In this document: one piece after another, positions 4,836-27,582 of the stretch
How the letters are laid out: every line of letters begins with the position of its first letter
Position numbering within the stretch: the first letter of the stretch is position 1
NCBI RefSeq assembly: GCF_000009705.1
Contig: NC_003273.1
Span: 1 to 32,000 of the forward strand
Source of the DNA: Nostoc sp. PCC 7120 = FACHB-418
GTDB taxonomy: Bacteria > Cyanobacteriota > Cyanobacteriia > Cyanobacteriales > Nostocaceae
DNA: 32,000 nucleotides
Direction of reading: 5' to 3'
Notes under the pieces: model-generated
The model's database searches: none
Told to the model about the DNA's origin: nothing
The model's input: only the letters and a program-made list of their open reading frames with translations
Translations under genes and position numbers: made by a program

Positions 4836-4869
4836 GCCAAAAGCTGGTTAAAACGATGATTTTATGATG

Positions 4870-5040: not shown

Positions 5041-5243
5041 AGGTCGCTTTGTGGCTGGAGTGGGTGTTGTTACCGAAGAATTTCGAGTAGGGGGTATTAG
5101 TATGGAGGTGTACTCACTATACTTCCGCGCCCTGCGGGTGGGCTGCGCCCATCCTTCGCTACGCTCAGGACGCAGAAGCTACGTTCGCCCCTGCGGGGAG
5201 TTCGCACCCCATTGGCACAACTGTAAAATCCGAGAGTAAATCA

Positions 5244-6947: not shown

Positions 6948-8620
6948 CGTGGCAAAACTTACTAGAGAGGAGCAGAGATCCTGTAATCTTGAGCTTGTAA
7001 CGAAATAATGGTACAAAAACTTGGTAAGAAAAAGTTTAAAACCAGAGGCAACATCGTTTGAAGTACTCGATTGTGTTCAAAAAAAATGCCCTTCGTGTGG
7101 TCAAGCAATGTGGAATGAATACAATAATCCTCGACATATAAGAACGCTAAATGGGGTAGTAGAACTACAGCTAAAAATTCGGCGATGTCAAAATAAGTCA
7201 TGTATGCGGTATAAAAAAGCATATCGACCAGAGCAAGAAGGGTCACTCGCTCTACCACAGAACGAATTTGGTTTGGATGTGATTGCTTATATAGGAGCAT
7301 TACGCTACCAGGAACATAGAAGTGTTCCTCAAATACACACTCACCTTGAATTAAAGGGTATATGTATAAGTAAACGAACGGTCACACACTTAATTGACAG
7401 ATATGACGAGTTACTTTCTTTATGGCTAAAAGACCATAAAAGATTAAAAGCAATAGTGGCTAATCAAGGACGGGTGATATTAGCCATTGATGGGATGCAG
7501 CCAGAAATTGGACATGAGGTATTATGGGTAATTCGAGATTGTCTATCAGGAGAAATTTTACTTGCTAAAACTTTATTATCATCAAGGAATGAAGATTTAG
7601 TAGCGTTATTATTAGAAGTGGCTAATACACTGGATGTACCAATTGATGGAGTTGTTAGTGATGGACAACAATCAATTCGTAAAGCTGTTGGGTTAGCATT
7701 ACCTAAAATTGCTCATGGTTTATGTCATTACCATTACCTGAAAGAAGCAATTAAACCCATATATGAGGCGGATAGAAATGCAAAAAAGGAATTGAAAAAA
7801 AAAGTTAGAGGATTACGAGAAATTGAACGTAGTGTTACCAATGAAGATAAGGATTTGGTGACTATTATTGAAGATTATTGCTCGGCAGTCCGTAGTTCTA
7901 TAACCAATGATGGACATCCACCGTTAGAGGCATCTGGATTAAAGTTACAAGAAAATTTGACTTTGATAGAACAAAGCTTAGAAAGGATGGAAAAAAGAAG
8001 TGCTTTACCACCACCTTTAGTTAACCTAAAACACCTTCTAGCTAAGGGATTATCTGCTACTGCATCTTTATTTTCACCTGTGAGGGTTGCATATCAGTGG
8101 GTTGATAAAGCTAGTAATATTCTCAACAATAAAATAGGTCTTGATGCTGCTGGGGTCAAACAAAGTTATCAGCAACTGTTGACAGAAATGTCTCAACAAA
8201 AGCAGAAAGCTGGTACCCTGAACACTGCAATCGATAACTTTATAAAAACCACCCACAGCTACTGGTCTGGACTTTTTCATTGTTATGAAATTGAAGATTT
8301 TCCTAGAACTAATAATGACTTAGAACACGCTTTTGGTATGCTACGTTATCATCAACGTCGTTGTACCGGTCGTAAGGTTGCCCCCTCATCTCTCGTTATT
8401 CGTGGTTCTGTCAAACTTGCCTGTGCGATAGCTACTAAGCTTCATTCTTTTACCGCATCTGATTTAGCACAAGTTGATATTCATACTTGGCTCGAATTAC
8501 GCTCTCAATTGCAAAAACACCACAAAGCCAGAATTGAACAGTATCGATTTCGCAGAGACCCCAAGGCTTACTTGGCTAATCTAGAGAGTCGTCTTCTCTA
8601 GTAAGTTTTGCCACGCTAGG
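6943..8620 (+). mobile_element. Complete insertion sequence (~1.68 kb) with 26-bp perfect terminal inverted repeats and a 6-7 bp target duplication
   Basis: IR-L cctagcgtggcaaaacttactagaga (6943..6968) is the exact reverse complement of 8595..8620. It is flanked by tcttat at 6937..6942 and 8621..8626. It contains one long transposase ORF. Confidence 0.9.
7021..8601 (+). CDS. DDE-type transposase with N-terminal zinc finger; IS family not confidently assigned (IS66/ISKra4-like layout)
   Basis: 526 aa with a TTG start, the only in-frame start after the upstream stop. It shows CPSCG...CQNKSC, candidate catalytic ILAIDGMQ and VVSDGQQS, CHYHYLKE, and a late TNNDLEHAFG motif resembling the NNxxE box of IS66-like transposases. 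Confidence 0.8.
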   Translation: MVRKSLKPEATSFEVLDCVQKKCPSCGQAMWNEYNNPRHIRTLNGVVELQLKIRRCQNKSCMRYKKAYRPEQEGSLALPQNEFGLDVIAYIGALRYQEHRSVPQIHTHLELKGICISKRTVTHLIDRYDELLSLWLKDHKRLKAIVANQGRVILAIDGMQPEIGHEVLWVIRDCLSGEILLAKTLLSSRNEDLVALLLEVANTLDVPIDGVVSDGQQSIRKAVGLALPKIAHGLCHYHYLKEAIKPIYEADRNAKKELKKKVRGLREIERSVTNEDKDLVTIIEDYCSAVRSSITNDGHPPLEASGLKLQENLTLIEQSLERMEKRSALPPPLVNLKHLLAKGLSATASLFSPVRVAYQWVDKASNILNNKIGLDAAGVKQSYQQLLTEMSQQKQKAGTLNTAIDNFIKTTHSYWSGLFHCYEIEDFPRTNNDLEHAFGMLRYHQRRCTGRKVAPSSLVIRGSVKLACAIATKLHSFTASDLAQVDIHTWLELRSQLQKHHKARIEQYRFRRDPKAYLANLESRLL

Positions 8621-8622
8621 TC

Positions 8623-8718
8623 TTATCTAAAGCTAGTGACTGGAACCAGCAGCTTCTTGAATATGGGCGGCAGTTGAGGCGACAGCAACAGCAACAGGAT
8701 GATGAATTGAGTCTTTAA
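8623..8718 (+). pseudogene. Displaced 3-prime end of the relaxase gene, separated by the IS
   Basis: Removing 6943..8626 joins ...caa gtc tta to tct aaa gct..., which stays open in the relaxase frame for 29 more codons (KASDWNQQLLEYGRQLRRQQQQQDDELSL) up to TAA at 8716..8718. Confidence 0.75.
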
Positions 8719-8731
8719 ATATTTTTTATCA

Positions 8732-9508
8732 CTAAGATTTTTGAGAGCTTGACACTAAATTAGTAAATTCTCTCAAAATATTTTTATATCTTTGACCAGC
8801 TACCCCATAAAAATCATTATGGCTGGCGTTATCTACCCATAATTTCAACTTTGGTGACGGGGAAGCTGCATACAACTTTTGTGCATGAGTAAAAGGAATT
8901 ATCTCATCAGCTTGACCGTGCATAATTAATACTGGACAGTTCACCTTTTTGATTTTTTCTAAATTATTGAATTTATCAAATGGCAAAATTTTTATTGGTA
9001 CTACAACTTGAAAAGCCGAAGTAAAGGTACTTTCTATAATTAAACCTCCTACTGGCTGCCGAGCCGCCAAATCTACTGCTGAACCTCCTCCCACTGAACG
9101 TCCAAAAACAATAATATTCTTTGGTAGTATTTTTAAATCTTTGGTTAAATAGTTGTAAGCTGCATCAATATCTTGATAAGCGTTATTTTCCGTAGGTCTT
9201 CCTGCGCTTGTACCGTAACCCCGATAATCATAAGCCAACACATTGAACCCTAAGTCTCTTAATTGTTCTAGAAATTGTCTAATCTCGCCTAAATCTTCTG
9301 CATTCCCATGAGCATAAATAATTGTGTACTTAGCTGTAGGATTCACTAAATGAACTGCTGAAATTTTCGTTTCTCCCCCACTCTTGAGCTTCTTGATTTC
9401 TTGAGTATCAAGATAGCTAGATGGTTGAGGCAAGAAAATCATACTATCTGCTCGAAAATAAACATACACAGCCAAAAATAGATAAATAAAAATTATTGAG
9501 CTTAACAA
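8732..9508 (-). CDS. Alpha/beta hydrolase (serine hydrolase) with N-terminal membrane anchor
   Basis: 258 aa. Hydrophobic N-terminus, HGNAED, nucleophile elbow GRSVGGG (GxSxG), MHGQADEIIP and ASHNDF, consistent with a Ser-Asp-His triad. Confidence 0.8.
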   Translation of the reverse strand: MLSSIIFIYLFLAVYVYFRADSMIFLPQPSSYLDTQEIKKLKSGGETKISAVHLVNPTAKYTIIYAHGNAEDLGEIRQFLEQLRDLGFNVLAYDYRGYGTSAGRPTENNAYQDIDAAYNYLTKDLKILPKNIIVFGRSVGGGSAVDLAARQPVGGLIIESTFTSAFQVVVPIKILPFDKFNNLEKIKKVNCPVLIMHGQADEIIPFTHAQKLYAASPSPKLKLWVDNASHNDFYGVAGQRYKNILREFTNLVSSSQKS

Positions 9509-9979
9509 TCTTTTCCAGGTAAAATCACCAATTAAAATTTTTTTTCAGACGCTGTTTATCCATTTTTACTCTGTTGACTATAACTTGCCAAAATAAATTA
9601 CCAACGTTTTTTTACCTTTCCCCTTTTTGGCAAGTAGCTAACACTAGTTAAGCTAAGAGCATTAGCAACAGCAGTTAGATGATTTGAGTTTTTAAGGGAA
9701 TGACTTGATGTAGCATAAATATATCTATTTGTATTACATAGATGCTGATTGTTTTTTCTTTTTCAGTTTTGACACCAAAATATGAGGTGATTTTTTTATC
9801 AAGTTTTTTATATTAACTCTTGCTGGAGAATCCCCGCAAAAAAAAGTTGATACAACGAGTTGATTCAGCGATGCTGCTATCTAACTTCTGCCTGCTTTGT
9901 TTATAAGTGCATAAATCTCCAGACGCAAAGCTATTGAGTAAATGTAAGACATCAATTAAGACAACCACTGGAGAAAATC

Positions 9980-10213
9980 ATGTTTAACAAGAGCATTGAC
10001 AAAAACCAAGCTTTAGTAAAAAAAGCTCTCGTCGCTTGTTCTTTGATTGGTATTGTTTTAAGTAGTAACATAGCTCAAGCTAGTACCCCCATTGTAGTTA
10101 AAGGCACAAAATGTCACCCTGGTTCTCCTGTAGGATTTTGTTGCCCTAACGATGGTACCTCCAGTGGCCCATATTGTCCGGCTCGTCGCATTGCTCCCAA
10201 AACTCAAAATTGA
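9980..10213 (+). CDS. Small secreted cysteine-rich peptide (77 aa)
   Basis: The signal-peptide-like LVACSLIGIVLSSNIAQAS is followed by a ~40-aa Gly/Pro-rich region with four Cys (CHPGSPVGFCCPNDGTSSGPYC). The upstream ggaga is a possible RBS. Confidence 0.45.
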   Translation: MFNKSIDKNQALVKKALVACSLIGIVLSSNIAQASTPIVVKGTKCHPGSPVGFCCPNDGTSSGPYCPARRIAPKTQN

Positions 10214-12717: not shown

Positions 12718-13152
12718 GTGACCAAACAAGTTAACGCTCAACACACTCACTCCAGTTTCTTACCTGATATTTCCTCTAGGCGCATTTTGCTAGTTGAGGA
12801 TGAGCCTGACATTGCCGAGTTGCTAATTGTTCTTTTAGAAGCTGAAGGTGCAGAGGTGATAACTTTTCACGATGCAGAAACAGCACTTGCCCAAATCGAA
12901 TCACTAAGGCCCGATATTCTCTTATGCAATGTCAAGTTACCCCATCATGATGGACATTGGTTAGTTAAAAAGCTTCGTTTGCATTCCTGCTCTTTTTTAC
13001 AACATCTGCCTGCTATTGCCATCACTTCTTATACACGGGATTTTCCCATGTCTTTGGCTTTAAACGCTGGCTTTGATCGATGTCTCTCCAAAATTGAAAA
13101 TTTAGATCAAATCGTCAGTAAGATATCTGAGCTACTCTCTGACCATCCTTAA
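12718..13152 (+). CDS. Single-domain response-regulator receiver protein with Asn at the phospho-acceptor position
   Basis: 144 aa with a GTG start. RILLVEDEPD acidic pocket, PDILLCNVKLPHHDG where canonical receivers have PDhhhhD, AIAITSY (conserved T/S), LSKI (conserved K region). Confidence 0.75.
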   Translation: MTKQVNAQHTHSSFLPDISSRRILLVEDEPDIAELLIVLLEAEGAEVITFHDAETALAQIESLRPDILLCNVKLPHHDGHWLVKKLRLHSCSFLQHLPAIAITSYTRDFPMSLALNAGFDRCLSKIENLDQIVSKISELLSDHP

Positions 13153-17128: not shown

Positions 17129-17356
17129 TCACGCTTGGCGATCGCTTGCGTCCACTCTTTTATAAGCAGGGGGATATTTGGAAGGAAATTTAGCTCTTAT
17201 GGCCTGCTCAACAAGAAACGCTACAAGATTAGCTGTAGCTCTACCTTCTTCATCAGCCCATAATTGTAAGTCCTCATAAACTGCGTCAGGTAAAACAATA
17301 GTTGTTCTTTTGGTCATGTCGATGAAAGCTTCTGTGTTCATCGATTCTATCCTCAT
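17129..17356 (-). CDS. Ribbon-helix-helix (CopG/Arc/MetJ-type) DNA-binding protein
   Basis: TKRTTIVLPDAVYEDLQLWADEEGRATANLVAFLVEQAI is a textbook RHH strand-helix-helix. The true start is probably an internal Met (17341 or 17317). It is divergent from the second actin-like ATPase gene. Confidence 0.75.
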   Translation of the reverse strand: MRIESMNTEAFIDMTKRTTIVLPDAVYEDLQLWADEEGRATANLVAFLVEQAIRAKFPSKYPPAYKRVDASDRQA

Positions 17357-17377
17357 GTAGTAATTAACTTTGCTTAA

Positions 17378-17420
17378 TTCATGCTATCGCATTATTTATT
17401 CATGCGATTCTATGCTAACA
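17378..17420. promoter_or_regulatory. Candidate operator in the divergent promoter region
   Basis: ttcatgc occurs at 17378 and 17399, 21 bp (two helical turns) apart, and tatgcta occurs at 17411. The site lies between the RHH gene and the 17579 operon. Confidence 0.3.
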
Positions 17421-17578
17421 TACTATCATCAAGCCAAAAGCAGTCACCCAACAAAGGCAACAGAAGCCAGAAAGTGACGTTCAGGCTTGCCAAAAACTGG
17501 ATATGTGGATTTATGGCGATTGTGCCTCTAAATTCCCCAAAGTCAGAAATCTAAAGACTTTTACCAATAATCAGAACC

Positions 17579-18706
17579 ATGACAACCGCATACTTGAATG
17601 CCGAAAATTGGCTTGCTCAAGCCGACTTATTCGCCAATTCCGGGTTAACTACCATCACGGGAGGTAAAGACCCCGGTGCTGGGTATGGCAAGGCTATCTA
17701 TGGTGATTTTTCTATCATGATGCCAGCCGCATACTCATTAGTCCGTAACCGCAACATTCGCCATTACGAAACCATATCTAAAGATGGCTGCTGGGTGTGT
17801 TATGTGGACGGCGCGAGAAAGGACTTAAAAGATGTTCAATTCTTCTGGGGTAGTGCAGCGATCACACAACGCGACTACACCCTACTCCATGAGGACAAGT
17901 CCAAAAAAGCAGAACTGGCATTAGAAAGCATACTTGCAGACTTAGCAGTTCTGAATATTCCCGATGGGATGAGACTAGAGATTAGCTTGAGCAACCACAA
18001 TCCCCAACGCTGGGACAAAGAAATTAAGCGACGAGTGCAAGGTATTCACACCTTCCAACATAAACACCCCATCAATCAGCAAATTGTTACTAAAACGGTT
18101 GAGATTGTAGTTACAGGTGTTTACCGCGAAGGCTTTGGCAGTATCGCTTACTGTCTATTTGGTGAACCAATTCTCACACTTGAAGAATCAGAGGTGGCTA
18201 TCGCGCTTGATATCGGTTCATCGACTTGGTTAATTACCGTATTTAACGGCAATGGTGCAGTGATTGGCGAACATTTAATAGAGAATGGCTGCGGTGAATT
18301 GCACTCAATGATTGCCGAGGCATTAGACAAAAGAAATGACTCAGGAAGCCTAATATCCAAAGATGTCAAACATTCCCCTTCCTTAGTAAATAAAGGGATT
18401 TTAGAAGGCACTTTGACTTATGGAGGAAATCACTTAACAGGCAAGAAATTTGAATTGGAATATGCCCAGTATTTAGAGCAATGGTGGTCAAGCCAGATTG
18501 AGAAATTCGCCAACTTTGTCACCTCTAAGAATTACCTAGACCGTGCTAAATACTTGGTGGCTTGGGGTGGTGGAGTTTCCTTACCAGTAGTCGATGAGAA
18601 TCTAGCACAATTCGGCTTTATGGTCTTACCAAATCCGCAATTTATCAATGCAATGGGATTGAAGTTACTAACAGAAAGTATGACAGGAGTAGAAACAAGT
18701 GTCTGA
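17579..18706 (+). CDS. Actin-like ATPase (ParM/StbA-type), copy 2
   Basis: 375 aa. Phosphate-1-like GGKDPGAGYGKAIY, phosphate-2 IALDIGSSTWLITVF, adenosine motif LVAWGGGVSL. Confidence 0.75.
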   Translation: MTTAYLNAENWLAQADLFANSGLTTITGGKDPGAGYGKAIYGDFSIMMPAAYSLVRNRNIRHYETISKDGCWVCYVDGARKDLKDVQFFWGSAAITQRDYTLLHEDKSKKAELALESILADLAVLNIPDGMRLEISLSNHNPQRWDKEIKRRVQGIHTFQHKHPINQQIVTKTVEIVVTGVYREGFGSIAYCLFGEPILTLEESEVAIALDIGSSTWLITVFNGNGAVIGEHLIENGCGELHSMIAEALDKRNDSGSLISKDVKHSPSLVNKGILEGTLTYGGNHLTGKKFELEYAQYLEQWWSSQIEKFANFVTSKNYLDRAKYLVAWGGGVSLPVVDENLAQFGFMVLPNPQFINAMGLKLLTESMTGVETSV

Positions 18707-18962
18707 AAAAACCTCATACGAATCTCGGCGTATAACCATTTCTTACCTAGCAGTTTATGAACTGTGCCAAATGTTTGATATCCCCCAAGATGCACCAACA
18801 CAAGCATTTTCAGCAGCAATAGAGAAGCTGATATTTCAATCTGGAGTCAACAAGAGTGCATTACCAACTCCTCAAAATACTGTATCAACACCTGCACCGA
18901 TTCAACCAAATAAGGCAAGGCTATCAAGTATGGTTAATCAGTTAAACGGGGTAGCGTCATGA
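18699..18962 (+). CDS. Hypothetical small protein (87 aa), translationally coupled
   Basis: The GTG start overlaps the upstream stop (gtgtctga). It occupies the position where type II par loci encode the adaptor, but no motif was recognised. Confidence 0.45.
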   Translation: MSEKTSYESRRITISYLAVYELCQMFDIPQDAPTQAFSAAIEKLIFQSGVNKSALPTPQNTVSTPAPIQPNKARLSSMVNQLNGVAS

Positions 18963-19225
18963 ACAAGTTAAATAGGGTCTATGACAGCACACTACTAAGC
19001 AGTTCCAAAGTGTATCAAATTGACAGAAACCTGTATCAATACTTGTACAAGACAGGCACAATCCAAGCACCACAATACATCTTTCGACCACTAGCAAGAC
19101 AGCGAAAGAAAGCAGATTTGCAACTGAATCACAAAGCTTTAACTAATCGTTGTTATGAGGTGGAAGGTGCAACTACAAAGAGTTCTGTAATCAGTCAAGA
19201 ATCACTGCAATTAGCACTGTTTTGA
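18959..19225 (+). CDS. Hypothetical basic small protein (88 aa)
   Basis: ATGA start/stop overlap with the preceding ORF. Confidence 0.45.
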   Translation: MNKLNRVYDSTLLSSSKVYQIDRNLYQYLYKTGTIQAPQYIFRPLARQRKKADLQLNHKALTNRCYEVEGATTKSSVISQESLQLALF

Positions 19226-19238
19226 AGGAGCAAGAATT

Positions 19239-19430
19239 GTGAGAATTAGACAAGCAATAGGAGCTACTTTATTTCTACTTAGCTGTGTTGGTTTTGGTTA
19301 TCTTTCTACTCAAAAGTTTGGTGCAACTACCACAGCAATGATAGGTGGAGGAATGTTCAGCATAGGAGTAATCGCCCACTTACAACAAAAACCAGTACCA
19401 CGTAAACGCACTAACAAATCTGTTAACTAA
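19239..19430 (+). CDS. Small two-pass membrane protein (63 aa)
   Basis: GTG start preceded by aaggag. Two hydrophobic helices (AIGATLFLLSCVGFGYL, MIGGGMFSIGVIAHL) and a basic tail. Confidence 0.5.
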   Translation: MRIRQAIGATLFLLSCVGFGYLSTQKFGATTTAMIGGGMFSIGVIAHLQQKPVPRKRTNKSVN

Positions 19431-19441
19431 TAGGCATAATT

Positions 19442-19600
19442 ATGAGCCAATCATTAACTAGCCTAATTCAAGAGGCACAGCAAACAATTCTACAAATTCG
19501 CAACCATCCCGATTACAAGCAAATTGCACTCAACTATAGTCCCGACTTGACGCGCTTGAGATGCAACAACAGCATTGACTTACTTGCAGTGGGAAGTTGA
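19442..19600 (+). CDS. Possible 52-aa ORF, below the ORF-track cut-off
   Basis: ATG 11 nt after the preceding stop. It encodes MSQSLTSLIQEAQQTILQIRNHPDYKQIALNYSPDLTRLRCNNSIDLLAVGS and fills an otherwise empty gap in the operon. The RBS is weak. Confidence 0.3.
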   Translation: MSQSLTSLIQEAQQTILQIRNHPDYKQIALNYSPDLTRLRCNNSIDLLAVGS

Positions 19601-19731
19601 GGAGAGAACAACTATCGATGTAGCGAAGCTTGAAGCATTTTCTAGTTAGAGGGAGAGCGATCGCAGGGAGTGAGAATCTTGGCGATCGCTTCTCCAGTGG
19701 TTTTAAATACACACATAAGGATCATACCAAT

Positions 19732-20034
19732 ATGTCAAAACCTTTAGGGTACTTCACTTCAACAATGCCGGGGGATGGTTCCTACTTGGACGAACTTCAA
19801 CAGCAATACGGCAGCACATTTGAACAACTGAATAAGGTAGAGAAACTGTTGCTGCTGCAAAACATAGCCCAAACCCTGCTAGGTGCAGAAATTAACGTAA
19901 TTGGCAGCGCAGTATCAGCAGAAGCTGTCTCAACAGTCTCGCCCATTGTCCAAGGTCTTTACAAACGAGTGACCCTAGCAGACTTGTTGGGATTGGCAGA
20001 GGCATTGGTTAATCAACTCAAGTATCAGCAATAG
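19732..20034 (+). CDS. Hypothetical protein (100 aa from the internal ATG of ORF 19630..20034)
   Basis: The ATG at 19732 is preceded by aagga. The upstream part of the track ORF covers an imperfect hairpin built on two HIP1 sites (19651..19695) and is unlikely to be coding. Confidence 0.45.
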   Translation: MSKPLGYFTSTMPGDGSYLDELQQQYGSTFEQLNKVEKLLLLQNIAQTLLGAEINVIGSAVSAEAVSTVSPIVQGLYKRVTLADLLGLAEALVNQLKYQQ

Positions 20035-20043
20035 GAGTAAAAC

Positions 20044-20715
20044 ATGGCGCGTAACTATGGAACTGCCAAACTCAAAAACCATATCTCTGGTAATGCCCCT
20101 GGTACTTTGGGAGCAATGGGCAAACTGTTTGACGTGTCGGCGGAGGATTTTAACAAGGCACTTCAAGGCGACCAAACGGTAATCACCCGAATTGCAGATA
20201 TGGCGCGACTGTCGGACACGTACATAGCCAATTTACCCAAAGCATTGGAGGCATACCGGAAAATTATCGAGACAACCGGGGATGTTAATCAAGCCTATGC
20301 CGAACTGGTGCAACTGACCCAGAAGCACGGAACGCAAACCTTGAAGGCTATCAATTCATCTAAACAGGGCGAACTGCGTTTCAAGAACGAATTGACCGGA
20401 ATGCAAGCCGAACACGTTAACGCCACGACTGCGGAGGCTACCCGACACGCTCAACGCTCATCCTTAATTCAGATAGCAGGGGCCACCGCCGACCTAATGG
20501 CGATCGCAAAATACGAGGCTGATTTAATCAAGGCATCTAACAAAGTCCCAGAGGCTCAAGATGCAGCAGATCGCGCCTATGAAACTGCGGTAACTAACGC
20601 ACTGTGGACTAACGGCAGTGAAGCGAAGACCGACCGCATACCCAAACCAAACTACTCCCGCACTGCTGGAATTAGTCGTGTAGGAAATTGGTTCCGCAAC
20701 TTTATGGGCATCTAA
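20044..20715 (+). CDS. Hypothetical helical protein (223 aa)
   Basis: Good RBS (aggag) 9 nt after the preceding stop. No transmembrane segments and no motif recognised. Confidence 0.5.
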   Translation: MARNYGTAKLKNHISGNAPGTLGAMGKLFDVSAEDFNKALQGDQTVITRIADMARLSDTYIANLPKALEAYRKIIETTGDVNQAYAELVQLTQKHGTQTLKAINSSKQGELRFKNELTGMQAEHVNATTAEATRHAQRSSLIQIAGATADLMAIAKYEADLIKASNKVPEAQDAADRAYETAVTNALWTNGSEAKTDRIPKPNYSRTAGISRVGNWFRNFMGI

Positions 20716-20726
20716 GCCACAAGTAA

Positions 20727-20755
20727 AAAGCCAGAGGATGAGAGACTCTGGCTTT
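20727..20755 (+). terminator. Intra-operon hairpin (attenuator or partial terminator)
   Basis: aaagccagag (20727..20736) pairs perfectly with ctctggcttt (20746..20755) around a 9-nt loop, just after the 223-aa ORF. Confidence 0.4.
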
Positions 20756-20788
20756 CATGCCCTTTTATAGGGTTAAGAAGGAGTAAAA

Positions 20789-21367
20789 ATGAATGATTTT
20801 GACATCCTGTTATCTCAATTTCACTCCAATAATGAACAGACTCCCTCTACCAATTGGGGTGAACAGCAACACACTTTGCCGAACCCGGAGGATGAAGATG
20901 GTGAAAGGCTAGAGCAATCAATTAGGGATGTCTTCAGCAATAAACAACTCCTCAACAAAGCTCTAGCCACATTTTTGGGCGTATTCACCGCTAACACTGG
21001 AGTGAGTTTACTAACGAGTTTATCCATTGGGGCGATCGCTTCTGGGACACTAGGCAGCATTGTACTGGGTTTATTTTTCGCCAACACCCTGACCAAAATT
21101 CAATATGACGGCAGAATCCACATTGGCAAAGACTTCATAGTGGCGACTGTTCAGACTGCAAGTGTAGGGGCTTCGCTGTGGATAGCCTTTGACGAGTATC
21201 GGGTTGTAAGGGAGGCGACTAATACAGGTAAGACACGGTTCTATGAGGAAGTTAGAAACTACGAAGTTAAACCAACTCCCCAACCTGAACCCCCTTGGTT
21301 GTTAATGGGGTTAGGTGCAGTGGGGTTGTTGCTATTGGCAGTAGTGCTAAAGGGGGCAAACCAATGA
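20789..21367 (+). CDS. Multi-pass membrane protein (192 aa)
   Basis: RBS aaggag. The acidic N-terminus is followed by hydrophobic helices: FLGVFTANTGVSLLTSL, IASGTLGSIVLGLFFANTL, VQTASVGASLWIAF, WLLMGLGAVGLLLLAVVL. Confidence 0.55.
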   Translation: MNDFDILLSQFHSNNEQTPSTNWGEQQHTLPNPEDEDGERLEQSIRDVFSNKQLLNKALATFLGVFTANTGVSLLTSLSIGAIASGTLGSIVLGLFFANTLTKIQYDGRIHIGKDFIVATVQTASVGASLWIAFDEYRVVREATNTGKTRFYEEVRNYEVKPTPQPEPPWLLMGLGAVGLLLLAVVLKGANQ

Positions 21368-23091
21368 AACACAAGCAATTCGAGTCATATACAAGTTCAG
21401 GGACAGCCAACAATATTACTGTAGGTGTGCTGGCAACCATCGGCTTAATCTGTGGGGCTAAATCATTCACTGGCACTCAAATTAGTTTGGTGGAATATTG
21501 TTTCATCCCCTCTACGCTGACCTTACCAGATAACCGTGCTAAATACTGCACACCAGATAAACGCTACATAATGCCGGAGTCTGAGTTTTATGCCGAAGCT
21601 TACGCACCAGCTAACCCTGAATTTCAACGTGATAATTTTCTGCCAACCAAAGCAACCAGACTAAGGATTATTCCACCCAGTAACCCGAATAAACCGCTTT
21701 GGGGTCTAGCCGCAGTTGTGACTACTGGTGGAGCTTTTGCATTGTCTAAGGCTAGGGAATGGCGATTGATGCAACTGCTACCCTCAATCAGAAATGAGCT
21801 AAAAGCCAACTGGTTGATCAGCAAAATGCGAGAAGGGCTAAGACTCCACAAAGAAAGCTACACCGCCCAACTAGACTACGAATTTCACCAATGGAGTGAA
21901 AATCGACGGGCAAGGGCAGCGCAGTTATCAAACATGACACCCCAAGAATTAGCCATATTTACCGAACAGGTCAGGTTAAGGGCTGAGGCTGAAGCACGAG
22001 CGCAACTGCAACAAGCAAGCGGACAGCCAAGAGGTGCATTGCCGGGGCAGTCGATTGAAGATATCACTAACCCATCAGATAAGGTGACGGGTGCTGACTC
22101 TACCCAGACGATTGCTCCCAAAGACAGTTGGGTACAAAACTTAGTCAAACAAACTGCCTTAATTTGGGGCAACCAAGGGGGTGGTAAAAGTTGGCTTGCC
22201 CGTTACGTTGTTAAACAGAAAAAACAGGCAGGCTATCGAGTTATCGTCCTTGACCCTGACAGTAACCGTGCAGAATGGCGAGGCGTTGAAAGTTATCACT
22301 CTTGGGACGAGATAGAGCAGCAGATCCGTAATTACGTTAAAGAACTGGAATCAAGATTAAAAATCTTTAATAACTCAACTATGAGTGAGGAGCAATGGCG
22401 GCAGAAACTTTGGACAGAGGGTAAAGCTTTATCTCTAATTTGTGAGGAAGCAACCACCTACGCTGACTTTATAAAAGATGCAGAATTATTGGAGAAATTC
22501 GGCAAGCTGGCATTAACTAAGAGCCGTAAACAAGAAATGCCTTTAACTGTGGTTGCTCACAACAATACCCAGACTTGTTTATTCGGAATAAAAGGCTTAC
22601 ATAATCTCGTTTCTAAGATGCTTCAGGTTGAATGTTTGGCTGAAGTAGATCCAGTTACACTACAGCCAAAATCTACAGGTAGAGCTAAGGTAAAACTCGA
22701 TAGTTCTAACGAATGGCTTGATGTTATTCTGCCGAGTTTGACAGCCAAAATATCTGATTTTAGTGACACAGTAACACCAGCATCTAATCCAATTCCACCC
22801 ATAGATAAAGCCACATTAGAACGCATTTATGAACTGGAATTTAATATCGGTGGCAAGGCTGGTGATACCCCCAATGAAAAAAATAAGCTATCACCAATGG
22901 CTCAAAAATTGTATGAATATCTCACCAGAACTGAACGAATAGAAGCTGATGTAAGAGAGTTCAAAGGCAATTTTAAAGTAAACGGTGAGAGATTCACTGT
23001 TGAGCAAATCAAGGGCTGGATGTATGAAATTGTCGGCGCATCTTTAGCAGACTGGATAGGCGAGGGTGTTATCAAGCTTAATCAAATTTGA
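21364..23091 (+). CDS. Membrane-anchored P-loop NTPase; candidate coupling protein or DNA translocase
   Basis: The start is taken at the ATG that overlaps the preceding stop (ATGA at 21364). Two N-terminal hydrophobic helices and a coiled-coil. Walker A IWGNQGGGKSWLARY, then RVIVLDPD and the Walker-B-like SLICEEATTY. The C-terminal ~70 aa (KLYEYLTRTERIEADVREF...) could be a winged helix; that is inference only. Confidence 0.6.
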   Translation: MKHKQFESYTSSGTANNITVGVLATIGLICGAKSFTGTQISLVEYCFIPSTLTLPDNRAKYCTPDKRYIMPESEFYAEAYAPANPEFQRDNFLPTKATRLRIIPPSNPNKPLWGLAAVVTTGGAFALSKAREWRLMQLLPSIRNELKANWLISKMREGLRLHKESYTAQLDYEFHQWSENRRARAAQLSNMTPQELAIFTEQVRLRAEAEARAQLQQASGQPRGALPGQSIEDITNPSDKVTGADSTQTIAPKDSWVQNLVKQTALIWGNQGGGKSWLARYVVKQKKQAGYRVIVLDPDSNRAEWRGVESYHSWDEIEQQIRNYVKELESRLKIFNNSTMSEEQWRQKLWTEGKALSLICEEATTYADFIKDAELLEKFGKLALTKSRKQEMPLTVVAHNNTQTCLFGIKGLHNLVSKMLQVECLAEVDPVTLQPKSTGRAKVKLDSSNEWLDVILPSLTAKISDFSDTVTPASNPIPPIDKATLERIYELEFNIGGKAGDTPNEKNKLSPMAQKLYEYLTRTERIEADVREFKGNFKVNGERFTVEQIKGWMYEIVGASLADWIGEGVIKLNQI

Positions 23092-23100
23092 CTGCTAATA

Positions 23101-23262
23101 GTGTCTTGTGTCTGCCCCCAAAAACGCCCTTTTTTCGCGGACACAGGACACCAGACACGGCAGACACCACAGCCCAAAACCCTTATACAGCATAGACACC
23201 AGCAGACAGCACACCAGACACCGCCCAGACACCAAGTGTCTAGTACGTGTCCGCTAGACACC
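23101..23262. repeat. Dense array of (A/G)GACAC(C) heptamer-like boxes, about 9 direct and 4 inverted
   Basis: Direct boxes at 23139, 23146, 23153, 23162, 23194, 23204 (degenerate agacag), 23216, 23227 and 23256. Inverted gtgtc(t/c) at 23101, 23108, 23236 and 23247. The array lies between the ATPase stop (23091) and the regulator start (23316). Confidence 0.9.
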
Positions 23263-23315: not shown

Positions 23316-23987
23316 ATGCTGAGAATAGTAATTGTTGAACCAGAAACATTCACGCTCTTAGGCTTCAAAGCGGCTATTGAACAATCTCCAGATATAGAAG
23401 TTACAGGGTCAGCTAATTGTGGAAAGATAGGTTTTCAGTTAATTGAACAAGTAAATCCTGATGTTGTGTTAGTTGATTTACTATTACCCGATATGAGTGG
23501 TTTAGAACTTACTCGTTCAATTAAAAGAAAGACTAATAGTAAAGTTGTCATTTTTACTAATGAGACTCATTCAGACTTTATTAACTCGGCTTTTCGTCAT
23601 GGTGCTGATTCTTATATGCTCAAGAGTGCTGATGTAGAATTGATTGAACTAGCCATCAAGAGAGCTTACTTTTATGAATGTCTACTTGACCCAAAGCTGG
23701 CTAAAAAACTGTTAGAAAGCCTTTATCAAAATAGATATATTGACCCCACCTTCGTTGATAAAAACTTGATAGATCCGCCTACCGAGCGCCAAATACAAGT
23801 CCTGCGTTTACTGGCTCAGGGTTTAGTTTTTCAAGATATTGCCAAAGAAATGTTTCTGTCTGTTAGTACGGTCAAACAATATGCCAGTGATTTGTACAGT
23901 AAATGGCACGTCAAGAACCGTTATGAGGCGATAAAAAGAGGGGCGATGCTTGGTTATATCGACTATAACTTGATTGTGAATGAATGA
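23316..23987 (+). CDS. NarL/FixJ-family response regulator (receiver plus LuxR-type HTH)
   Basis: 223 aa. The receiver has VLVDLLLPDMSG, but VIVEPE replaces the usual DD pocket. C-terminal LTERQIQVLRLLAQGLVFQDIAKEMFLSVSTVKQYASDLYSKW. Confidence 0.8.
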   Translation: MLRIVIVEPETFTLLGFKAAIEQSPDIEVTGSANCGKIGFQLIEQVNPDVVLVDLLLPDMSGLELTRSIKRKTNSKVVIFTNETHSDFINSAFRHGADSYMLKSADVELIELAIKRAYFYECLLDPKLAKKLLESLYQNRYIDPTFVDKNLIDPPTERQIQVLRLLAQGLVFQDIAKEMFLSVSTVKQYASDLYSKWHVKNRYEAIKRGAMLGYIDYNLIVNE

Positions 23988-25341: not shown

Positions 25342-25420
25342 TATAGTACATTAGTTCTAGTCAATACCTCCTTAGCTGACCAAAAATCAAACCCCGCTTT
25401 CTTGGTGGGGTTTATTTTTG
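25342..25420 (+). ncRNA. Candidate short RNA cassette C
   Basis: TATAGTACATTAGT at 25342; hairpin aaaccccgc...gtggggttt (~25389..25413), then atttttg. Confidence 0.3.
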
Positions 25421-25508
25421 CTCACGCACACTAACAAATCTGTTGTCACAGCAGCACTCATCATGCGGCCGTTTAAGATGAAATCAGACCGCGATTAAAA
25501 AAACAATT

Positions 25509-26519
25509 ATGGCATCTGCCTCACCCACGCCGAATCAGTCTACTAATATTGAGTTGCCGCTTGTCCAACCTCAACAGGAAAAAACTTTCTTGTCAACAGA
25601 GCTTTCAAAAACTGAGGTAGAGGTAGAGCCAGCAATACAAGCCCCAACGGATGATGAGCAAGTCAATCCTGAGACCGCATCACAAGTAGATGCTATTGAA
25701 GCAACAGGAGCGATATTTCAAGCGGTTGGCGTAATTACAGGAGAGGTAAATTTAAAGTCAGAGGGCATTAGCACTGTAACTATTGGTCGAAATCAATACC
25801 CGCTTTTGTACATTGGGCAGAAACTGAGAGTATTTCAGGCTCTCAAGAAAGAAATAGAAGCAACTGGCAATCGGACTTTTAGGCTGGTTGTTTATCCCAA
25901 GGCAATTCATTTCCCCAAAAAAGAGCAACCGCATCAAATTGCTTTTCAGTTAGTAGGCTTTGATAGAGGGCGATTCCAAGATGTAGTCTCAGGAGATTTA
26001 GAAGACCTAGAGTTTAAATTTTCAGGACTGTGGCAGTTTATCCCAGTCTGCCCAACTCCGTGCATCTCTGTGTTCCGCAACTTTACAACAGAAAGACTGG
26101 AATATATTAAGCAAGCCGAACCAGCGCGGAAGGTGAAATTCATGAAGTCCAGCCATTTACCGTTGCTGTGGAAGGATGCACCTGTTCGTCCCTTTAGATT
26201 TAATCCCAAAGTCCCGAAAGAACAGCTAGGACATCCAGTATTTGTCACCCTGAAGGCGAAATTTCTACCAGGGCGTAATGTATGGGGTTTTGTGGCCCTC
26301 ACCGCACCACCACAAGAAACTGCACCCAAATTTCTCAAAGCCTCTAAACAAGATAAAGCCACAGTCCAGCAACAGTCTAAAAAGAATAAACACCAGGGAC
26401 AGCGACCATTGAAAAAAGACCATCAAAGCGGCAATGGAGAGCCAAGCAATCCTCCATCTAAGCCAATACTCAAAAAAAAGCCGCTCCCAAGTGAGGGAGA
26501 AACTGAAAATCAAGCTTGA
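25509..26519 (+). CDS. Hypothetical protein (336 aa) with acidic N-terminus and lysine-rich C-terminal tail
   Basis: Long clean ORF. The acidic Glu/Gln/Pro-rich first ~60 aa are followed by a central globular-looking part and a basic tail (KKNKHQGQRPLKKDHQ...KPILKKKPLP). No family recognised. Confidence 0.55.
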   Translation: MASASPTPNQSTNIELPLVQPQQEKTFLSTELSKTEVEVEPAIQAPTDDEQVNPETASQVDAIEATGAIFQAVGVITGEVNLKSEGISTVTIGRNQYPLLYIGQKLRVFQALKKEIEATGNRTFRLVVYPKAIHFPKKEQPHQIAFQLVGFDRGRFQDVVSGDLEDLEFKFSGLWQFIPVCPTPCISVFRNFTTERLEYIKQAEPARKVKFMKSSHLPLLWKDAPVRPFRFNPKVPKEQLGHPVFVTLKAKFLPGRNVWGFVALTAPPQETAPKFLKASKQDKATVQQQSKKNKHQGQRPLKKDHQSGNGEPSNPPSKPILKKKPLPSEGETENQA

Positions 26520-26530
26520 GCTAAAAATGA

Positions 26531-26567
26531 TTGGCACTCTCATGTTTTTAAATAATGAAAGTGCCAA
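26531..26567 (+). terminator. Hairpin after the 336-aa ORF
   Basis: ttggcact (26531..26538) pairs with agtgccaa (26560..26567); the loop is long (21 nt) and aaagtttt follows. The stems reuse the TTGGCAC box seen at 4888..5040. Confidence 0.3.
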
Positions 26568-26868
26568 AAAGTTTTATCTGAAGGGTCTTTATAATGGCTG
26601 ACCCCGTTTGAATTGAGAAATGTTAAGTTCCATTTAGATGCTCATCGAATTAATGGCGTTTTAGATTATTTAATAATTTCTTTAGATTTGTATCTCGAAT
26701 TTCATTTGTTCTCTAACTAAGGAAAGATGATTTAACTTGATAGACCCATCTGGAGATGAATAGAAACAAGCAGACTCAAGCATTACAATGCTAACAATCG
26801 ATACAAGCTCTACTGCTGGTGAAAGAGAGCTTTGGTGTCTAATAGGAGCGAAAATTTGAGGTTGGGCA

Positions 26869-27582
26869 ATGAATAAAATCCGCGTAGTTTTAATTGAAGA
26901 TCATGACCTGACACGAATTGGTCTACGTGCTACTTTGCAAAAATTAGATGGCATTGAAGTCATTGGTGATGCTAGAGATGCTGCCTCTGGTCTGAAGTTG
27001 CTTAAATCTACTCAACCAGATATTGCGATTGTCGATGTGGGCTTGCCTGATATGAGCGGCATTGAGTTGACTCAACACTTTTTCAACTCAATGGACGCAC
27101 AACAAACCCCTCAAACCAAGATTTTAATTATGACCATGCAGGATAGTGAAGATACTGTTCTAGCAGCCTTCGCGGCGGGAGCAGATTCTTACTGCATGAA
27201 AGATGCCAGTACTGATAAATTAGTAGAGGCTTTGCATCTGACTGTTAATGGTAATTCCTGGATTGACCCAGTAATCGCTCGGATCGTTTTACAGCAGACC
27301 CAAAAAGCTACAACTGCTGCCAACGCTCGACCAGACACGGTAGCGATTAATGGCTTGTCACCAGAATATAGCCACATTGTAGAAACATATCCGCTCACTC
27401 GAAGAGAATTAGATGTCTTAAAGCTGATTGTAGATGGATGCTCTAACGCTGTGATTGCCGAAAAACTCTACGTTTCCGTAGGTACAGTTAAGACTCACGT
27501 TCGCAATATTCTCAATAAGTTATGTGTTAGTGACCGGACTCAGATAGCAGTTCGTGCTTTACGAGCCGGATTAGTTGCTTAA
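26869..27582 (+). CDS. NarL/FixJ-family response regulator (receiver plus LuxR-type HTH)
   Basis: 237 aa. VVLIEDHDL, IAIVDVGLPDMSG, ILIMTMQD, GADSYCMKD. C-terminal LTRRELDVLKLIVDGCSNAVIAEKLYVSVGTVKTHVRNILNKL. Confidence 0.85.
   Translation: MNKIRVVLIEDHDLTRIGLRATLQKLDGIEVIGDARDAASGLKLLKSTQPDIAIVDVGLPDMSGIELTQHFFNSMDAQQTPQTKILIMTMQDSEDTVLAAFAAGADSYCMKDASTDKLVEALHLTVNGNSWIDPVIARIVLQQTQKATTAANARPDTVAINGLSPEYSHIVETYPLTRRELDVLKLIVDGCSNAVIAEKLYVSVGTVKTHVRNILNKLCVSDRTQIAVRALRAGLVA

Follow-up and report, generated by a model that had tools for sequence, protein, structure and literature searches.

A repeat array lies directly after g9, the last gene of a nine-gene block in the 32,000-nucleotide stretch of Nostoc sp. 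PCC 7120 that we analysed (NC_003273.1, positions 1 to 32,000; hereafter the window), and its motif changes among relatives together with the C-terminal tail of the g9 ATPase. By analogy with Streptomyces TraB, we propose that the block encodes a plasmid-specific DNA translocase that would load at its own clt-like site, a reading to which we give about an even chance. The gene content, synteny, predicted fold classes, array and co-variation of the array with the g9 tail were observed. From these we infer DNA binding, translocation, the partner proteins and the destination of the DNA.

Under this proposal, the block would be a plasmid-backbone operon made of two modules: a type II partition cassette (a ParM-like ATPase, a small protein in the ParR position and a divergent ribbon-helix-helix [RHH] repressor) and a DNA-translocation unit, g7-g8-g9. 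Two predicted helices would anchor g9 in the cytoplasmic membrane, with its N-terminal domain probably touching g7 and g8. The winged helix of g9 would read the G(A/G)CA-core repeats directly 3' of its own gene, and the FtsK/TcpA-like motor, once loaded at the array, would pump the plasmid across the membrane.

All nine open reading frames (ORFs) were present on the plus strand between 17579 and 23091, closely packed as the preliminary description had reported. The ParM-like gene and g2, which starts at GTG 18699, overlap by 8 nt; 4-nt ATGA overlaps join g2 to g3 at 18959 and g8 to g9 at 21364, and the remaining intergenic gaps measure 9-131 nt. Shine-Dalgarno-like strings (GGAG, AGGAG or AAGGAG) precede g2, g4, g6, g7 and g8, and a GGGGG string precedes g9. 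The overlapping starts and stops and the ribosome-binding sites described earlier were thus confirmed, as were the motifs quoted for g1 (DPGAGYGK, DIGSST, WGGG) and g9 (GNQGGGKS, LICEE). Two decisive features lay outside that description: the winged helix at the C-terminus of g9, and the array, which begins just past the region it covered (Table 1).

Table 1. Coordinates and supporting evidence for features of the block and its flanks.
Feature	Coordinates	Strand	Evidence or remark
75-aa RHH (CopG/ParG-like) protein	17129..17356	-	Pfam RHH_5 E 6.4e-20
Divergent promoter/operator spacer (candidate)	17357..17578		short direct repeats; repeat search and sequence
g1, ParM-like actin-fold ATPase, 375 aa	17579..18706	+	PHROG 691, Pfam ALP_N
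g2, 87 aa	18699..18962	+	ParR-like adaptor candidate
g3, 88-aa soluble protein, variable component	18959..19225	+	family in 13 loci
g4, 63 aa, two hydrophobic segments	19239..19430	+	hydropathy; family in 21 loci
g5, frameshifted copy of conserved 65-91-aa family F15/F8	19442..19600	+	hhalign
g6, 100 aa	19732..20034	+	length as in most relatives
g7, 223-aa helical soluble protein, core component	20044..20715	+	conserved in loci
g8, 192-aa membrane protein, core component	20789..21367	+	hydropathy
g9 N-terminal domain, aa 1-245	21364..22098	+	AF2 model, hydropathy
g9 motor, aa ~250-470, RecA-type FtsK/HerA-superfamily ATPase	22111..22773	+	Foldseek, profiles
g9 C-terminal winged-helix domain, aa ~505-575	22876..23091	+	AF2 model, Foldseek
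Array, 12 GACAC motifs	23101..23261		motif counts; directly after g9
NarL/LuxR-type response regulator	23316..23987	+	Pfam Response_reg 1.7e-17, GerE 7.6e-13

The gene order, whose conservation on other cyanobacterial plasmids had been put forward as a check, recurred in 63 Nostocales plasmid records and 48 genome contigs; the arrangement is not due to chance. Named hosts were almost all filamentous cyanobacteria; the sole other name belonged to an Acetobacteraceae metagenome-assembled (MAG) contig, probably Nostoc DNA binned in error. The cluster is modular rather than one obligate actin-plus-ATPase machine. Two unrelated small genes replaced ParM in five loci, other small genes stood at its position in a sixth, and g7-g8-g9 were retained in each; moreover, ParM types combined freely with g9 types. 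Obligatory coupling of the actin-like protein to the ATPase is therefore unlikely.

The head of the operon resembles a partition cassette. The earlier ParM/StbA-like assignment of g1 stood: the protein matched PHROG 691, 'partition protein', over its full length (aa 29-365, E 4.8e-14) and Pfam ALP_N just under the cut-off (3e-5; 24.7 bits vs 26.3), and its homologues carry ParM/StbA annotation. This ParM family was present in 42 of 51 mapped related loci. By position only, g2 is a candidate ParR-like adaptor. It had no profile match in family searches, ParR profiles included; its type switches along with the ParM type (families g2, F27 and F30), and hhalign comparisons of these three families with one another were not significant. 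The RHH gene diverges from the operon, and its product is likely the repressor of the shared promoter region; the counterpart is annotated ParG in pCENA543c and NIES-3275, and most relatives carry a small RHH-like gene from one of three families at this position. The intervening spacer contains two copies each of TTCATGC(T/G)AT and CGATTCTAT.C, and may function as a parC/operator. As in ParMRC of plasmid R1, an actin-fold ATPase is followed by a small overlapping gene and preceded by short repeats in the upstream spacer. Unlike in ParMRC, g2 lacks a ParR profile match, an extra divergent RHH gene lies upstream, seven more genes are translationally chained to the cassette, and five to six relatives have other genes in place of ParM. 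Next to mobV, the window has another, divergent ParM-like gene, so the gene at 17579 does not encode the plasmid's sole actin-like system.

The middle of the cluster consists of variable small genes. As the preliminary description had found, the genes between g1 and g9 could not be named: no T4SS, phage or defence family was matched in profile searches, and g3 had no family match at all in these searches. Hydropathy placed the hydrophobic segments of g4 at residues 3-25 and 29-49. What had been described as a possible 52-aa ORF, g5, belongs to a real family (F15 vs F8: hhalign 88.6 %, E 2.7e-6), although the window copy is frameshifted after about codon 37, and the conserved C-terminus (DATTALTYLQWEVEERTT...) runs on in another frame at ~19565-19650. 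The 100-aa form of g6 starts at 19732; in most Nostoc loci its position is occupied by the acidic F4 protein (147-180 aa), which is not homologous to it (hhalign E 0.33).

By contrast with this variable middle, g7 (223 aa), g8 (192 aa) and g9 (575 aa) form an invariant trio. Every full-length-matching locus contained g7, at 48-94 % identity. The protein has no Pfam, NCBIfam or PDB relatives, and only 83 representative clusters were found among 1.84 billion proteins. For g8, hydropathy yielded four hydrophobic segments, in line with the four-helix membrane protein proposed earlier. Its 84 clusters, all Nostocales where an organism was named, had no informative Pfam domain, and it is homologous to the 188-aa protein of a second lineage (24 % identity, E 1e-6).

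The g9 gene starts at ATG 21364 rather than TTG 21295, and an identical 575-aa database protein exists. According to the AF2 model and hydropathy, g9 opens with two hydrophobic segments and a coiled coil, continues into a RecA-type motor and ends in a winged helix; the earlier call of a membrane-anchored P-loop ATPase was thus borne out. The hydrophobic segments (aa 13-38 and 111-130; modelled helices 14-35 and 110-218) flank a loop of ~75 aa holding the invariant C46, and the second is followed by a long coiled coil and a disordered linker. This domain diverges in step with g7 and g8, falling to 26 % identity in the second lineage. The motor carries Walker A GNQGGGKS, LDPDS..E, Walker B LICEE and TKSRK. 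Foldseek matched it to TcpA (6o1x, 5.9e-7), FtsK (2ius/6t8o, 1e-5) and EccC, so that g9 itself belongs to the FtsK/TcpA/VirD4 class, contrary to the earlier statement that no VirD4-type gene was recognisable. Profile searches gave VirB4 (0.017) and TrwB (0.049) in the PDB, AAA_10 and DUF87 below the Pfam cut-off, and TraD weakly (TIGR03743, 3.4e-4). The motor spans only ~200 aa, and an FtsK alpha domain is not clearly present. The tail adopts a predicted H-β-H-H-β-β fold (pLDDT 75-89) whose leading Foldseek matches were winged-helix domains, not significant at E >= 0.014; against FtsK gamma (2j5p), the TM score was 0.67 (rmsd 2.8). From this modelled fold, and because its sequence type predicts the downstream motif (see below), the tail is a candidate sequence-specific DNA reader.

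The array has a (C/T)AGACACC core, with eight motifs on the plus and four on the minus strand. Its 160 nt contain 12 GACAC motifs, the window background being 0.27 per 200 nt, and five of the six AGACACC copies in the window lie inside it. The layout is conserved (motif columns 90.5 % vs spacers 70.7 % conserved, p 9e-7), and each complete plasmid has one array. In the window, 16 kb separate the array from mobV. A different repeat, TTGGCAC, is present in about 6-7 copies just upstream of mobV.

Among relatives, the array motif is GACAC, GACAG, ACGGCA, CCYGACA or ATTACGAA, and it varies in step only with the final ~100 residues of g9, independently of the motor, N-terminus, ParM, replication protein and downstream regulator. 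Across 44 loci in which g9 is intact and the spacer 3' of it has been sequenced, the tail was 80-93 % identical to that of the window in all seven GACAC loci and at most 42 % identical, or undetectable, in all 34 ACGGCA loci. The two array classes overlapped in the similarity of ParM, g2, g7, g8, the g9 N-terminal domain and the response regulator, and one replication-protein type occurred with both arrays (L009 vs L015). Three natural chimeras separated the tail from the motor as the correlate of the motif: L045 has a different motor, a window-type tail and GACAC; L054 has a motor 89 % identical to that of the window, a tail only 45 % identical and GACAG; and L047 combines an L045-type motor with another tail and ATTACGAA. 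Among further loci fetched as tests, L062 had the predicted GACAG array, whereas in L060 the prediction failed in its simple form, a 63 % window-like tail accompanying GACAG instead of GACAC. The motif is therefore not set by how similar the tail is overall; GACAC and GACAG tails are told apart only by a short segment (EFKGNFKVNG vs (D/E)(I/V)QPxFKVKG). In the Coleofasciculus locus L061, likewise fetched as a test, a distinct array of CC(C/T)GACA follows the stop codon directly. Because tail and array are physically adjacent, linkage alone could produce the co-variation; the breakpoints are tight on both sides, falling at the motor/tail junction and, past the array, before the regulator gene, which lies 55 nt from it.

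By analogy with clt, the array is a candidate loading site for g9. It is flanked by the g9 stop codon and the regulator start codon, and membrane-tethered DNA-binding proteins exist, so the winged helix and array might instead form a regulatory or tethering device that pumps no DNA, with g9 holding the plasmid at the membrane or controlling read-through into the regulator gene. We consider this very improbable. Many loci keep the array without a regulator gene; the regulator is 86-92 % identical across loci of the two array classes, shows no co-variation with the motif and is probably a conserved neighbour rather than part of the machine; and the invariant Walker A residues (G272, G274, K275, S276), S300 and E304 of the DPDS..E motif, R346 and R388 argue for an active motor.

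If g9 is a motor at this site, it could serve vertical inheritance in the manner of FtsK/SpoIIIE but dedicated to the plasmid: stationed at the closing septum, it would identify the plasmid through the array, pump trapped copies into a daughter cell or trigger dimer resolution, and in this way supplement partition by ParM. The order of membrane anchor, linker, RecA-type motor and gamma-like winged helix is that of FtsK, most loci share the operon between module and partition cassette, and several relatives carry tyrosine recombinase genes 0.5-5 kb downstream of g9. However, none was found among the window ORFs of at least 100 aa scanned with Pfam, and the motif copies sit together in one place, as in clt, whereas KOPS and SRS are spread over the replicon with a polarity. 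Unlike FtsK, g9 is plasmid-encoded, has two transmembrane segments instead of four, and matches neither Pfam FtsK_SpoIIIE (at E <= 1; no sequence-level membership) nor FtsK_gamma. Additional ParA or ParM systems are frequent on carrier plasmids, so a further inheritance device seems redundant. We regard this explanation as improbable.

A serious competitor, though one we think unlikely, is that g9 is a type IV coupling protein (T4CP) of the TcpA/VirD4 kind, passing the relaxase-bound single strand of this mobilizable plasmid to a helper T4SS such as the cyanobacterial MPF_C, which sits on large Nostocales plasmids. In that case, g7 and g8 would serve in docking or in an accessory role, and the relaxosome would be recruited at the winged helix and array. 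Structurally, the motor is matched best by TcpA of Clostridium perfringens pCW3 (17 % identity), which is likewise plasmid-borne with two N-terminal transmembrane helices, a topology suited to T4CPs. The AAA_10, TraD and TrwB matches point the same way, although all T4CP family scores fall far under curated cut-offs; the PGAP name of a sister variant is 'type IV secretory system conjugative DNA transfer family protein'. The MobV relaxase noted earlier in the window was confirmed (Pfam Mob_Pre E 1.7e-30). In addition, 47 of the 63 plasmids were typed mobilizable or conjugative, at least one typed 'non-mobilizable' encodes MobV, and in L061 genes for a relaxase and a NikA-like protein lie ~2 kb from g9. 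Most complete cluster-bearing plasmids also encode a relaxase, which fits a T4CP and counts against the TraB-like reading. Against a T4CP, carriers encode relaxases of different families (MOBV, MOBP, PF03432), whose genes do not adjoin g9, and no relaxase was found in complete pCENA543c by annotation, Pfam searches of three large hypothetical proteins or tblastn. The oriT is normally expected just upstream of mobV, where the window has TTGGCAC repeats instead of the distant array. TcpA acts with a full Tcp T4SS, and profile searches found none of TcpF, TcpH or TcpC here. To our knowledge, no sequence-specific winged helix or cognate array has been reported for TcpA, nor do we know of this combination in other T4CPs.

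For g7-g8-g9 as a TraB-like translocase, the closest mechanistic model is the TraB/clt/Spd system of Streptomyces plasmids pSVH1 and pIJ101. There, the FtsK-like TraB works with Spd membrane proteins and recognises, via its C-terminus, the direct 8-bp repeats of the cognate clt; the spd genes are translationally coupled, and SpdB2 has four transmembrane helices (PMC4447253). Similarly, g9 is a predicted membrane-anchored FtsK-like ATPase whose C-terminus is matched to short repeats in cis, the accompanying membrane-protein genes are small, poorly conserved and translationally coupled, with g8 recalling SpdB2, and the host is multicellular and filamentous. The likeness is one of description rather than direct sequence comparison, with no detectable sequence similarity to TraB or Spd. 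The g9 motor is much shorter, the array repeats run in both orientations with a conserved core of 5-8 bp, and the trio is joined to a ParM operon. Speaking against the translocase, the host is enclosed by two membranes, and neither a peptidoglycan hydrolase nor an outer-membrane component is part of the module. Also by description, g9 resembles TdtA of Thermus thermophilus, an FtsK/HerA-superfamily transjugation ATPase that pushes DNA from the donor without a classical T4SS; its abstract mentions no cognate array or winged helix (PMC5365140).

DNA transfer or segregation, as first suggested, remains the best reading of the block. We found no description for cyanobacteria of a TraB/clt-like arrangement, an ATPase with a winged helix and a matching array; what is new here is the array directly after g9, changing with the g9 tail. 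By analogy, the most likely role of the block would be to move the plasmid from cell to cell, plausibly also through the septa of the filament.

All nine forward-strand open reading frames (ORFs) of the proposed machine, here g1 (ParM-like) to g9 (a membrane-anchored ATPase), were present as the preliminary description had them, with ribosome-binding strings of the GGAG type ahead of most starts. The genes overlapped by 8 nt (g1/g2) or 4 nt (g2/g3 and g8/g9), and the remaining gaps were 9–131 nt. Motifs that had been quoted, DPGAGYGK, DIGSST and WGGG in g1 among them, were found in the translations. The ORFs of g6 and g9 proved real, but both entries needed correcting, g9 in its start and length and g6 to the length shared by most of its relatives; a protein identical to g9 over all 575 aa is on record from a plasmid of Anabaena sp. 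FACHB-709. The short g5 ORF exists too, but as a frameshifted copy of a conserved family of 65–91 aa. Its conserved C-terminus, DATTALTYLQWEVEERTTIDVAKLEAFS, can still be read in a different frame (reference, the 68-aa family F15), and the frameshift represents either a pseudogene or a sequencing error. The middle products had been called unrecognizable, and g2 to g8 indeed had no match in Pfam, NCBIfam, PHROGs, PADLOC or PDB.

Features in and around the operon
Feature	Position (nt)	Strand	Product	Observation
Second ParM-like gene	3106–4835	-	422 aa	PHROG 691, E 6.6e-7, full length
TTGGCAC/GTGCCAA repeats	4860–5230			about 6–7 copies, both orientations, in mobV upstream spacer
mobV	at 5244		MobV relaxase	Mob_Pre 1.7e-30; 12 kb upstream of operon start
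ORF just after mobV	7021–8601		526 aa	weak IS66/MULE transposase matches
Low-G+C stretch	about 7000–10000			G+C 35–38% vs 40–50% elsewhere
Response-regulator gene	12718–13152
RHH gene			75 aa	divergent from operon; Pfam RHH_5, E 6.4e-20
Genes beyond RHH gene			241-aa hypothetical protein; VapE-type primase/helicase
Nine-gene operon (g1–g9)	17579–23091	+
g5 ORF with its out-of-frame C-terminus	19442–19650	+	52 aa (ORF)
g6	from 19732	+	100 aa	corrected form
g9	from 21364 (ATG)	+	575 aa	corrected start
GACAC array	23101–23261			160 nt, in spacer after g9
Response-regulator gene	23316–23987		NarL/LuxR type	follows g9
Response-regulator gene	26869–27582

The gene order recurs on related replicons. 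By blastn, we found the block in 63 plasmid records from Nostoc, Tolypothrix, Microchaete, Calothrix and Aulosira, and a g7 profile scan of GTDB genomes yielded 48 loci, often more than one per strain, with four loci each in Nostoc parmelioides FACHB-3921 and Nostoc sp. FACHB-892. Gene maps showed a modular cluster with a small divergent RHH-like gene upstream. At its head stood the ParM gene and a small overlapping gene, each in several mutually unrecognizable types; the middle held variable small genes, either g3, g4 and g5/F8 or the alternative families F7, F4, F23 and F41; there followed the trio g7-g8-g9, which was invariant, and often a response-regulator gene in last place. Among the alternative small genes, only the relation of g5/F15 to F8 held, homology being unsupported for g3 versus F7 (E 0.038) and for g6 versus F4 (E 0.33). 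In five loci (L019, L023, L029, L044 and L047), ParM and its partner were replaced, about 2–3 kb upstream of g7, by families F32 (~125 aa) and F33 (~195 aa), which had no PHROG or other profile match and by eye look like HTH proteins rather than ParA. A sixth locus without ParM, L062, had only small genes upstream of g7. A second lineage, on plasmids of CENA543, Tolypothrix and Microchaete, kept the same order with strongly diverged g7', g8' and g9 N-terminal domain, and the cluster extended beyond Nostocales to a Coleofasciculus contig and metagenomic contigs. A large group of plasmids has this module in its backbone.

Group II intron reverse-transcriptase genes lay inside the cluster at L057 (6829–8652), L008, L020, L036 and L050; the insertion at L036 was between small genes, and an intron insertion in NIES-3275 plasmid07 splits the ParM gene. 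One locus (L034), on the 4.6-kb contig CAZZZY010000572.1, had been binned in an 'uncultured Acetobacteraceae' MAG. Its g7-g8-g9 genes were 77–89% identical to those of the window and were accompanied by an ACGGCA repeat array, and the contig was most likely mis-binned, being a piece of a Nostoc plasmid in a metagenome of lichen or moss.

Within the invariant trio, the g7 family is small, with 83 representative clusters among 1.84 billion proteins; every named member was cyanobacterial, and the g7 profile matched nothing significant in the PDB. Hydrophobic segments numbered four in g8 and, among the variable genes, two in g4. The AlphaFold model of g9 (mean pLDDT 72) placed helices (aa 14–35 and from aa 110) at its two hydrophobic segments, separated by a loop of ~75 aa holding the invariant C46 and followed by a coiled coil to aa 218, a disordered linker, a RecA-type domain (aa 255–455) and a small C-terminal domain of H-β-H-H-β-β topology. 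The nearest structure to the motor by Foldseek was TcpA of pCW3 (5.9e-7, probability 1.0), and FtsK (2ius/6t8o, 1e-5) and EccC also matched. The Walker A residues, S300 and E304 of DPDS..E, and R388 were invariant, and D299 nearly so. Judged by this model, g9 is a predicted RecA-type motor of the FtsK/HerA superfamily.

Sequence profiles from Pfam, NCBIfam, PHROGs and PADLOC matched g9 at the P-loop level only. Pfam FtsK_SpoIIIE (PF01580) and FtsK_gamma gave no match at E ≤ 1, PDB sequence searches returned nothing significant, and the g9 family profile scored FtsK at E 1.0 only and weakly matched VirB4, DUF87 and TrwB around Walker A, 'DPxxE' and 'TKGRK'. Membership of the HerA-type anti-phage defence systems was not supported, the HerA match (PADLOC, E 9.7e-4) being confined to the P-loop and the partner genes having no match. 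A phage origin was rejected, since a Foldseek search against viral models returned only generic RecA and packaging ATPases. Modelled alone, the C-terminal domain of g9 (hereafter the tail) reached pLDDT 75–89 over the fold. Its leading matches were winged-helix domains, including FtsK gamma (TM 0.67, rmsd 2.8); because their E-values (≥ 0.014) were not significant, the model places the tail among winged helices as a fold class only.

The 225-nt spacer after g9 contained 12 copies of GACAC, eight on the forward and four on the reverse strand, with the core (C/T)AGACACC, against a window background of 0.27 per 200 nt; five out of six window copies of AGACACC lay in this spacer. The layout was kept across eight loci. 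A pair of inverted copies closely follows the stop codon; beyond an A/T-tract spacer come three or four direct copies, 7–9 nt apart, and then, further along, another group of direct copies. Conservation was 90.5% in motif columns versus 70.7% in spacer columns (p 9e-7). No other such cluster occurred in the window, and each of two complete plasmids had only one. The array is a candidate cognate repeat of the kind seen in clt/TRS, KOPS and SRS.

To relate tail to array, we compared 44 loci in which g9 was intact and the spacer behind it had been sequenced. GACAC (6–13 copies) was present at seven loci whose tails were 80–93% identical to that of the window, and ACGGCA (6–8 copies, layout unchanged) at 34 loci with a sister tail that was at most 42% identical or had no match. 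At L045, an unrelated motor with a window-type tail was followed by GACAC; at L054, a motor 89% identical with a tail 45% identical was followed by GACAG; and at L047, an L045-type motor with a third tail was followed by ATTACGAA. No clear repeat was seen at L048, which has a fourth tail type. Identity ranges overlapped between motif classes for ParM, g2, g7, g8, the g9 N-terminal domain and the response regulator, and one replication-protein type was found with both arrays.

We fetched three further loci to test prediction of the motif from the tail. The prediction held for L062, where an L054-type tail was accompanied by GACAG. The Coleofasciculus locus, with a fourth tail type, had an array of its own, CC(C/T)GACA, immediately behind the stop codon. 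Because L060, with a hybrid tail 63% like that of the window, had GACAG where GACAC was predicted, overall tail similarity is a poor predictor, and we replaced it with a short tail segment. In these sequences, the one-base difference between GACAC and GACAG narrows to ten residues, EFKGNFKVNG versus (D/E)(I/V)QPxFKVKG. Co-variation over the 44 + 3 loci makes the winged helix a candidate reader of the motif. Some of the co-variation comes from linkage, as tail and array are neighbours on the DNA; recombination boundaries that hug the tail-array unit on both sides argue against linkage as its sole cause. The regulator gene, 55 nt past the array, did not co-vary with the motif. Strains often held several module copies differing in tail and array specificity.

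Several other roles for the array were rejected. A response-regulator operator was discarded because the regulator was 86–92% identical in both motif classes and many array loci lacked it. A parC site for ParM/ParR was discarded because the same types of ParM (about 80% identity) and g2 (60–74% identity) occurred with GACAC, GACAG and ACGGCA, and because L015 had GACAC with a ParM only 25% identical. Replication iterons were discarded because VapE-type replication proteins 84–88% identical to that of the window occurred with both arrays (L009 and L015). An oriT for MobV is unlikely, with mobV 16 kb away and ACGGCA loci holding MobV proteins 61–71% identical to that of the window. As for the regulators themselves, two out of the three in the window had LuxR/GerE output domains, and no histidine kinase was found among the window ORFs scanned. 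The regulator after g9 was 86–92% identical across many plasmids, a conservation exceeding that of most backbone genes.

At the head of the operon, g1 matched the partition protein PHROG 691 (E 4.8e-14, aa 29–365 of 375) and Pfam ALP_N at E 3e-5 (24.7 bits, cut-off 26.3); a PDB sequence search returned nothing significant. The full-length profile match and phosphate-binding motifs indicate a ParM/actin-like ATPase. The overlapping g2 changed type together with ParM and had no profile match in Pfam or NCBIfam family scans, and upstream of g1 we saw only two short repeats, with two copies each. The second ParM-like ATPase of the window is very divergent; its gene and that of a 154-aa partner are divergent from mobV. 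The same pair adjoins mobV on pCENA543d (44% and 39% identity), with ParM/StbA as the annotation of the larger product. With this pair next to mobV, the plasmid thus has two actin-like cassettes, one tied to the relaxase.

The TTGGCAC repeats upstream of mobV differ from the GACAC array and are candidates for an oriT or a Mob operator; the motif was absent from the one other mobV upstream region compared, that of pCENA543d (MobV about 50% identical). An annotated MobV 48% identical to that of the window is encoded on pCENA543d (L059) at 25398–27134, and this plasmid was typed as non-mobilizable by MOB-suite in PLSDB; relaxases are therefore missing from fewer plasmids of this group than its 'non-mobilizable' counts suggest. 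The low G+C content beyond mobV suggests an inserted segment.

Our inference of a two-module function draws solely on sequence, predicted structure and comparative genomics. Module 1 (RHH gene, ParM and g2) would be a partition cassette whose promoter also drives the remaining operon. Module 2 (g7-g8-g9 and the array) would be a site-directed DNA translocase, a general mechanism that we consider probable: the winged helix would load g9 at the array, and the motor would then move plasmid DNA at the membrane, with g7 and g8 as membrane partners. The partner role is proposed because g7, g8 and the g9 N-terminal domain diverge jointly, a weak argument in that this divergence defines only two lineages. 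The arrangement of g7-g8-g9 and array mirrors that of Streptomyces TraB. There, the C-terminus of the cognate TraB recognizes direct 8-bp repeats within the clt site, translational coupling links the spd genes, and SpdB2 contains four transmembrane helices (PMC4447253). The likeness to Spd proteins, as these are described, is one of size, hydrophobicity and translational coupling only (PMC4447253). By this analogy, TraB-like cell-to-cell transfer may be the purpose, at slightly less than even chances.

The main rival has g9 as a type IV coupling protein (T4CP) serving the resident relaxase through a helper type IV secretion system (T4SS). The majority of carrier plasmids have a relaxase gene, TcpA tops the structural matches, and the hydrophobic segments at 13–38 and 111–130 are predicted to form the two N-terminal helices of a T4CP anchor. 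But the array is far from mobV, relaxase families vary among carriers, and no relaxase was found in pCENA543c. Matches of g9 to T4CP profiles were confined to the P-loop region and fell below the cut-offs for AAA_10 (21.6 versus 27.5 bits) and TIGR03743 TraD (19.2 versus 366 bits). The window encodes MobV; as had been claimed, the ORFs scanned included nothing like VirB4 or VirB6, a search that covered this stretch of one replicon. We consider the coupling-protein reading unlikely. As for what else g9 might do at the membrane, we think it quite improbable that it is a septal segregation pump, and highly improbable that it is a tether or regulator.

The site-directed translocase could serve filamentous cyanobacteria in a plasmid-borne, relaxase-independent, TraB-like transfer of double-stranded DNA, a scheme that we put forward as a long shot. 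The cell poles in a filament are the septa, and ParM filaments would drive copies of the plasmid towards them; there the g7-g8-g9 complex would recognize the plasmid from its address array and pump it across the septal membranes to the next cell, and the plasmid would spread along the filament. Such a system would be the convergent counterpart, in a two-membrane bacterium, of intramycelial spreading in Streptomyces. As a plasmid-specific 'postcode', the swappable pair of winged helix and array would let several related plasmids share a strain without cross-mobilization.

Each component belongs to a known kind, whether ParM, the FtsK/TcpA-class ATPase, the winged helix or the repeat array. What appears to be undescribed for cyanobacteria is their combination, in which a conserved g7-g8-g9 module is chained to a ParM operon and has matched specificities of tail and array that can be exchanged; the literature searched, whose incomplete coverage leaves absence unproven, contained no description of such a system. 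The movement and persistence of many small and medium plasmids in Nostoc, Anabaena and their relatives are poorly understood, and one survey judged that 88% of cyanobacterial plasmids are likely unable to move, given the conjugation model now in use (PMC8600333). If our reading is true, a cis element of about 160 bp and three genes would be candidate DNA-moving tools in cyanobacteria, and the matched protein/DNA series (GACAC, GACAG, ACGGCA, CCYGACA and ATTACGAA) would be a natural one for the study of DNA reading by winged helices. To our knowledge, the usual view confines TraB-type conjugation to actinomycetes; it would extend beyond them if g9 does work as a site-directed DNA pump.
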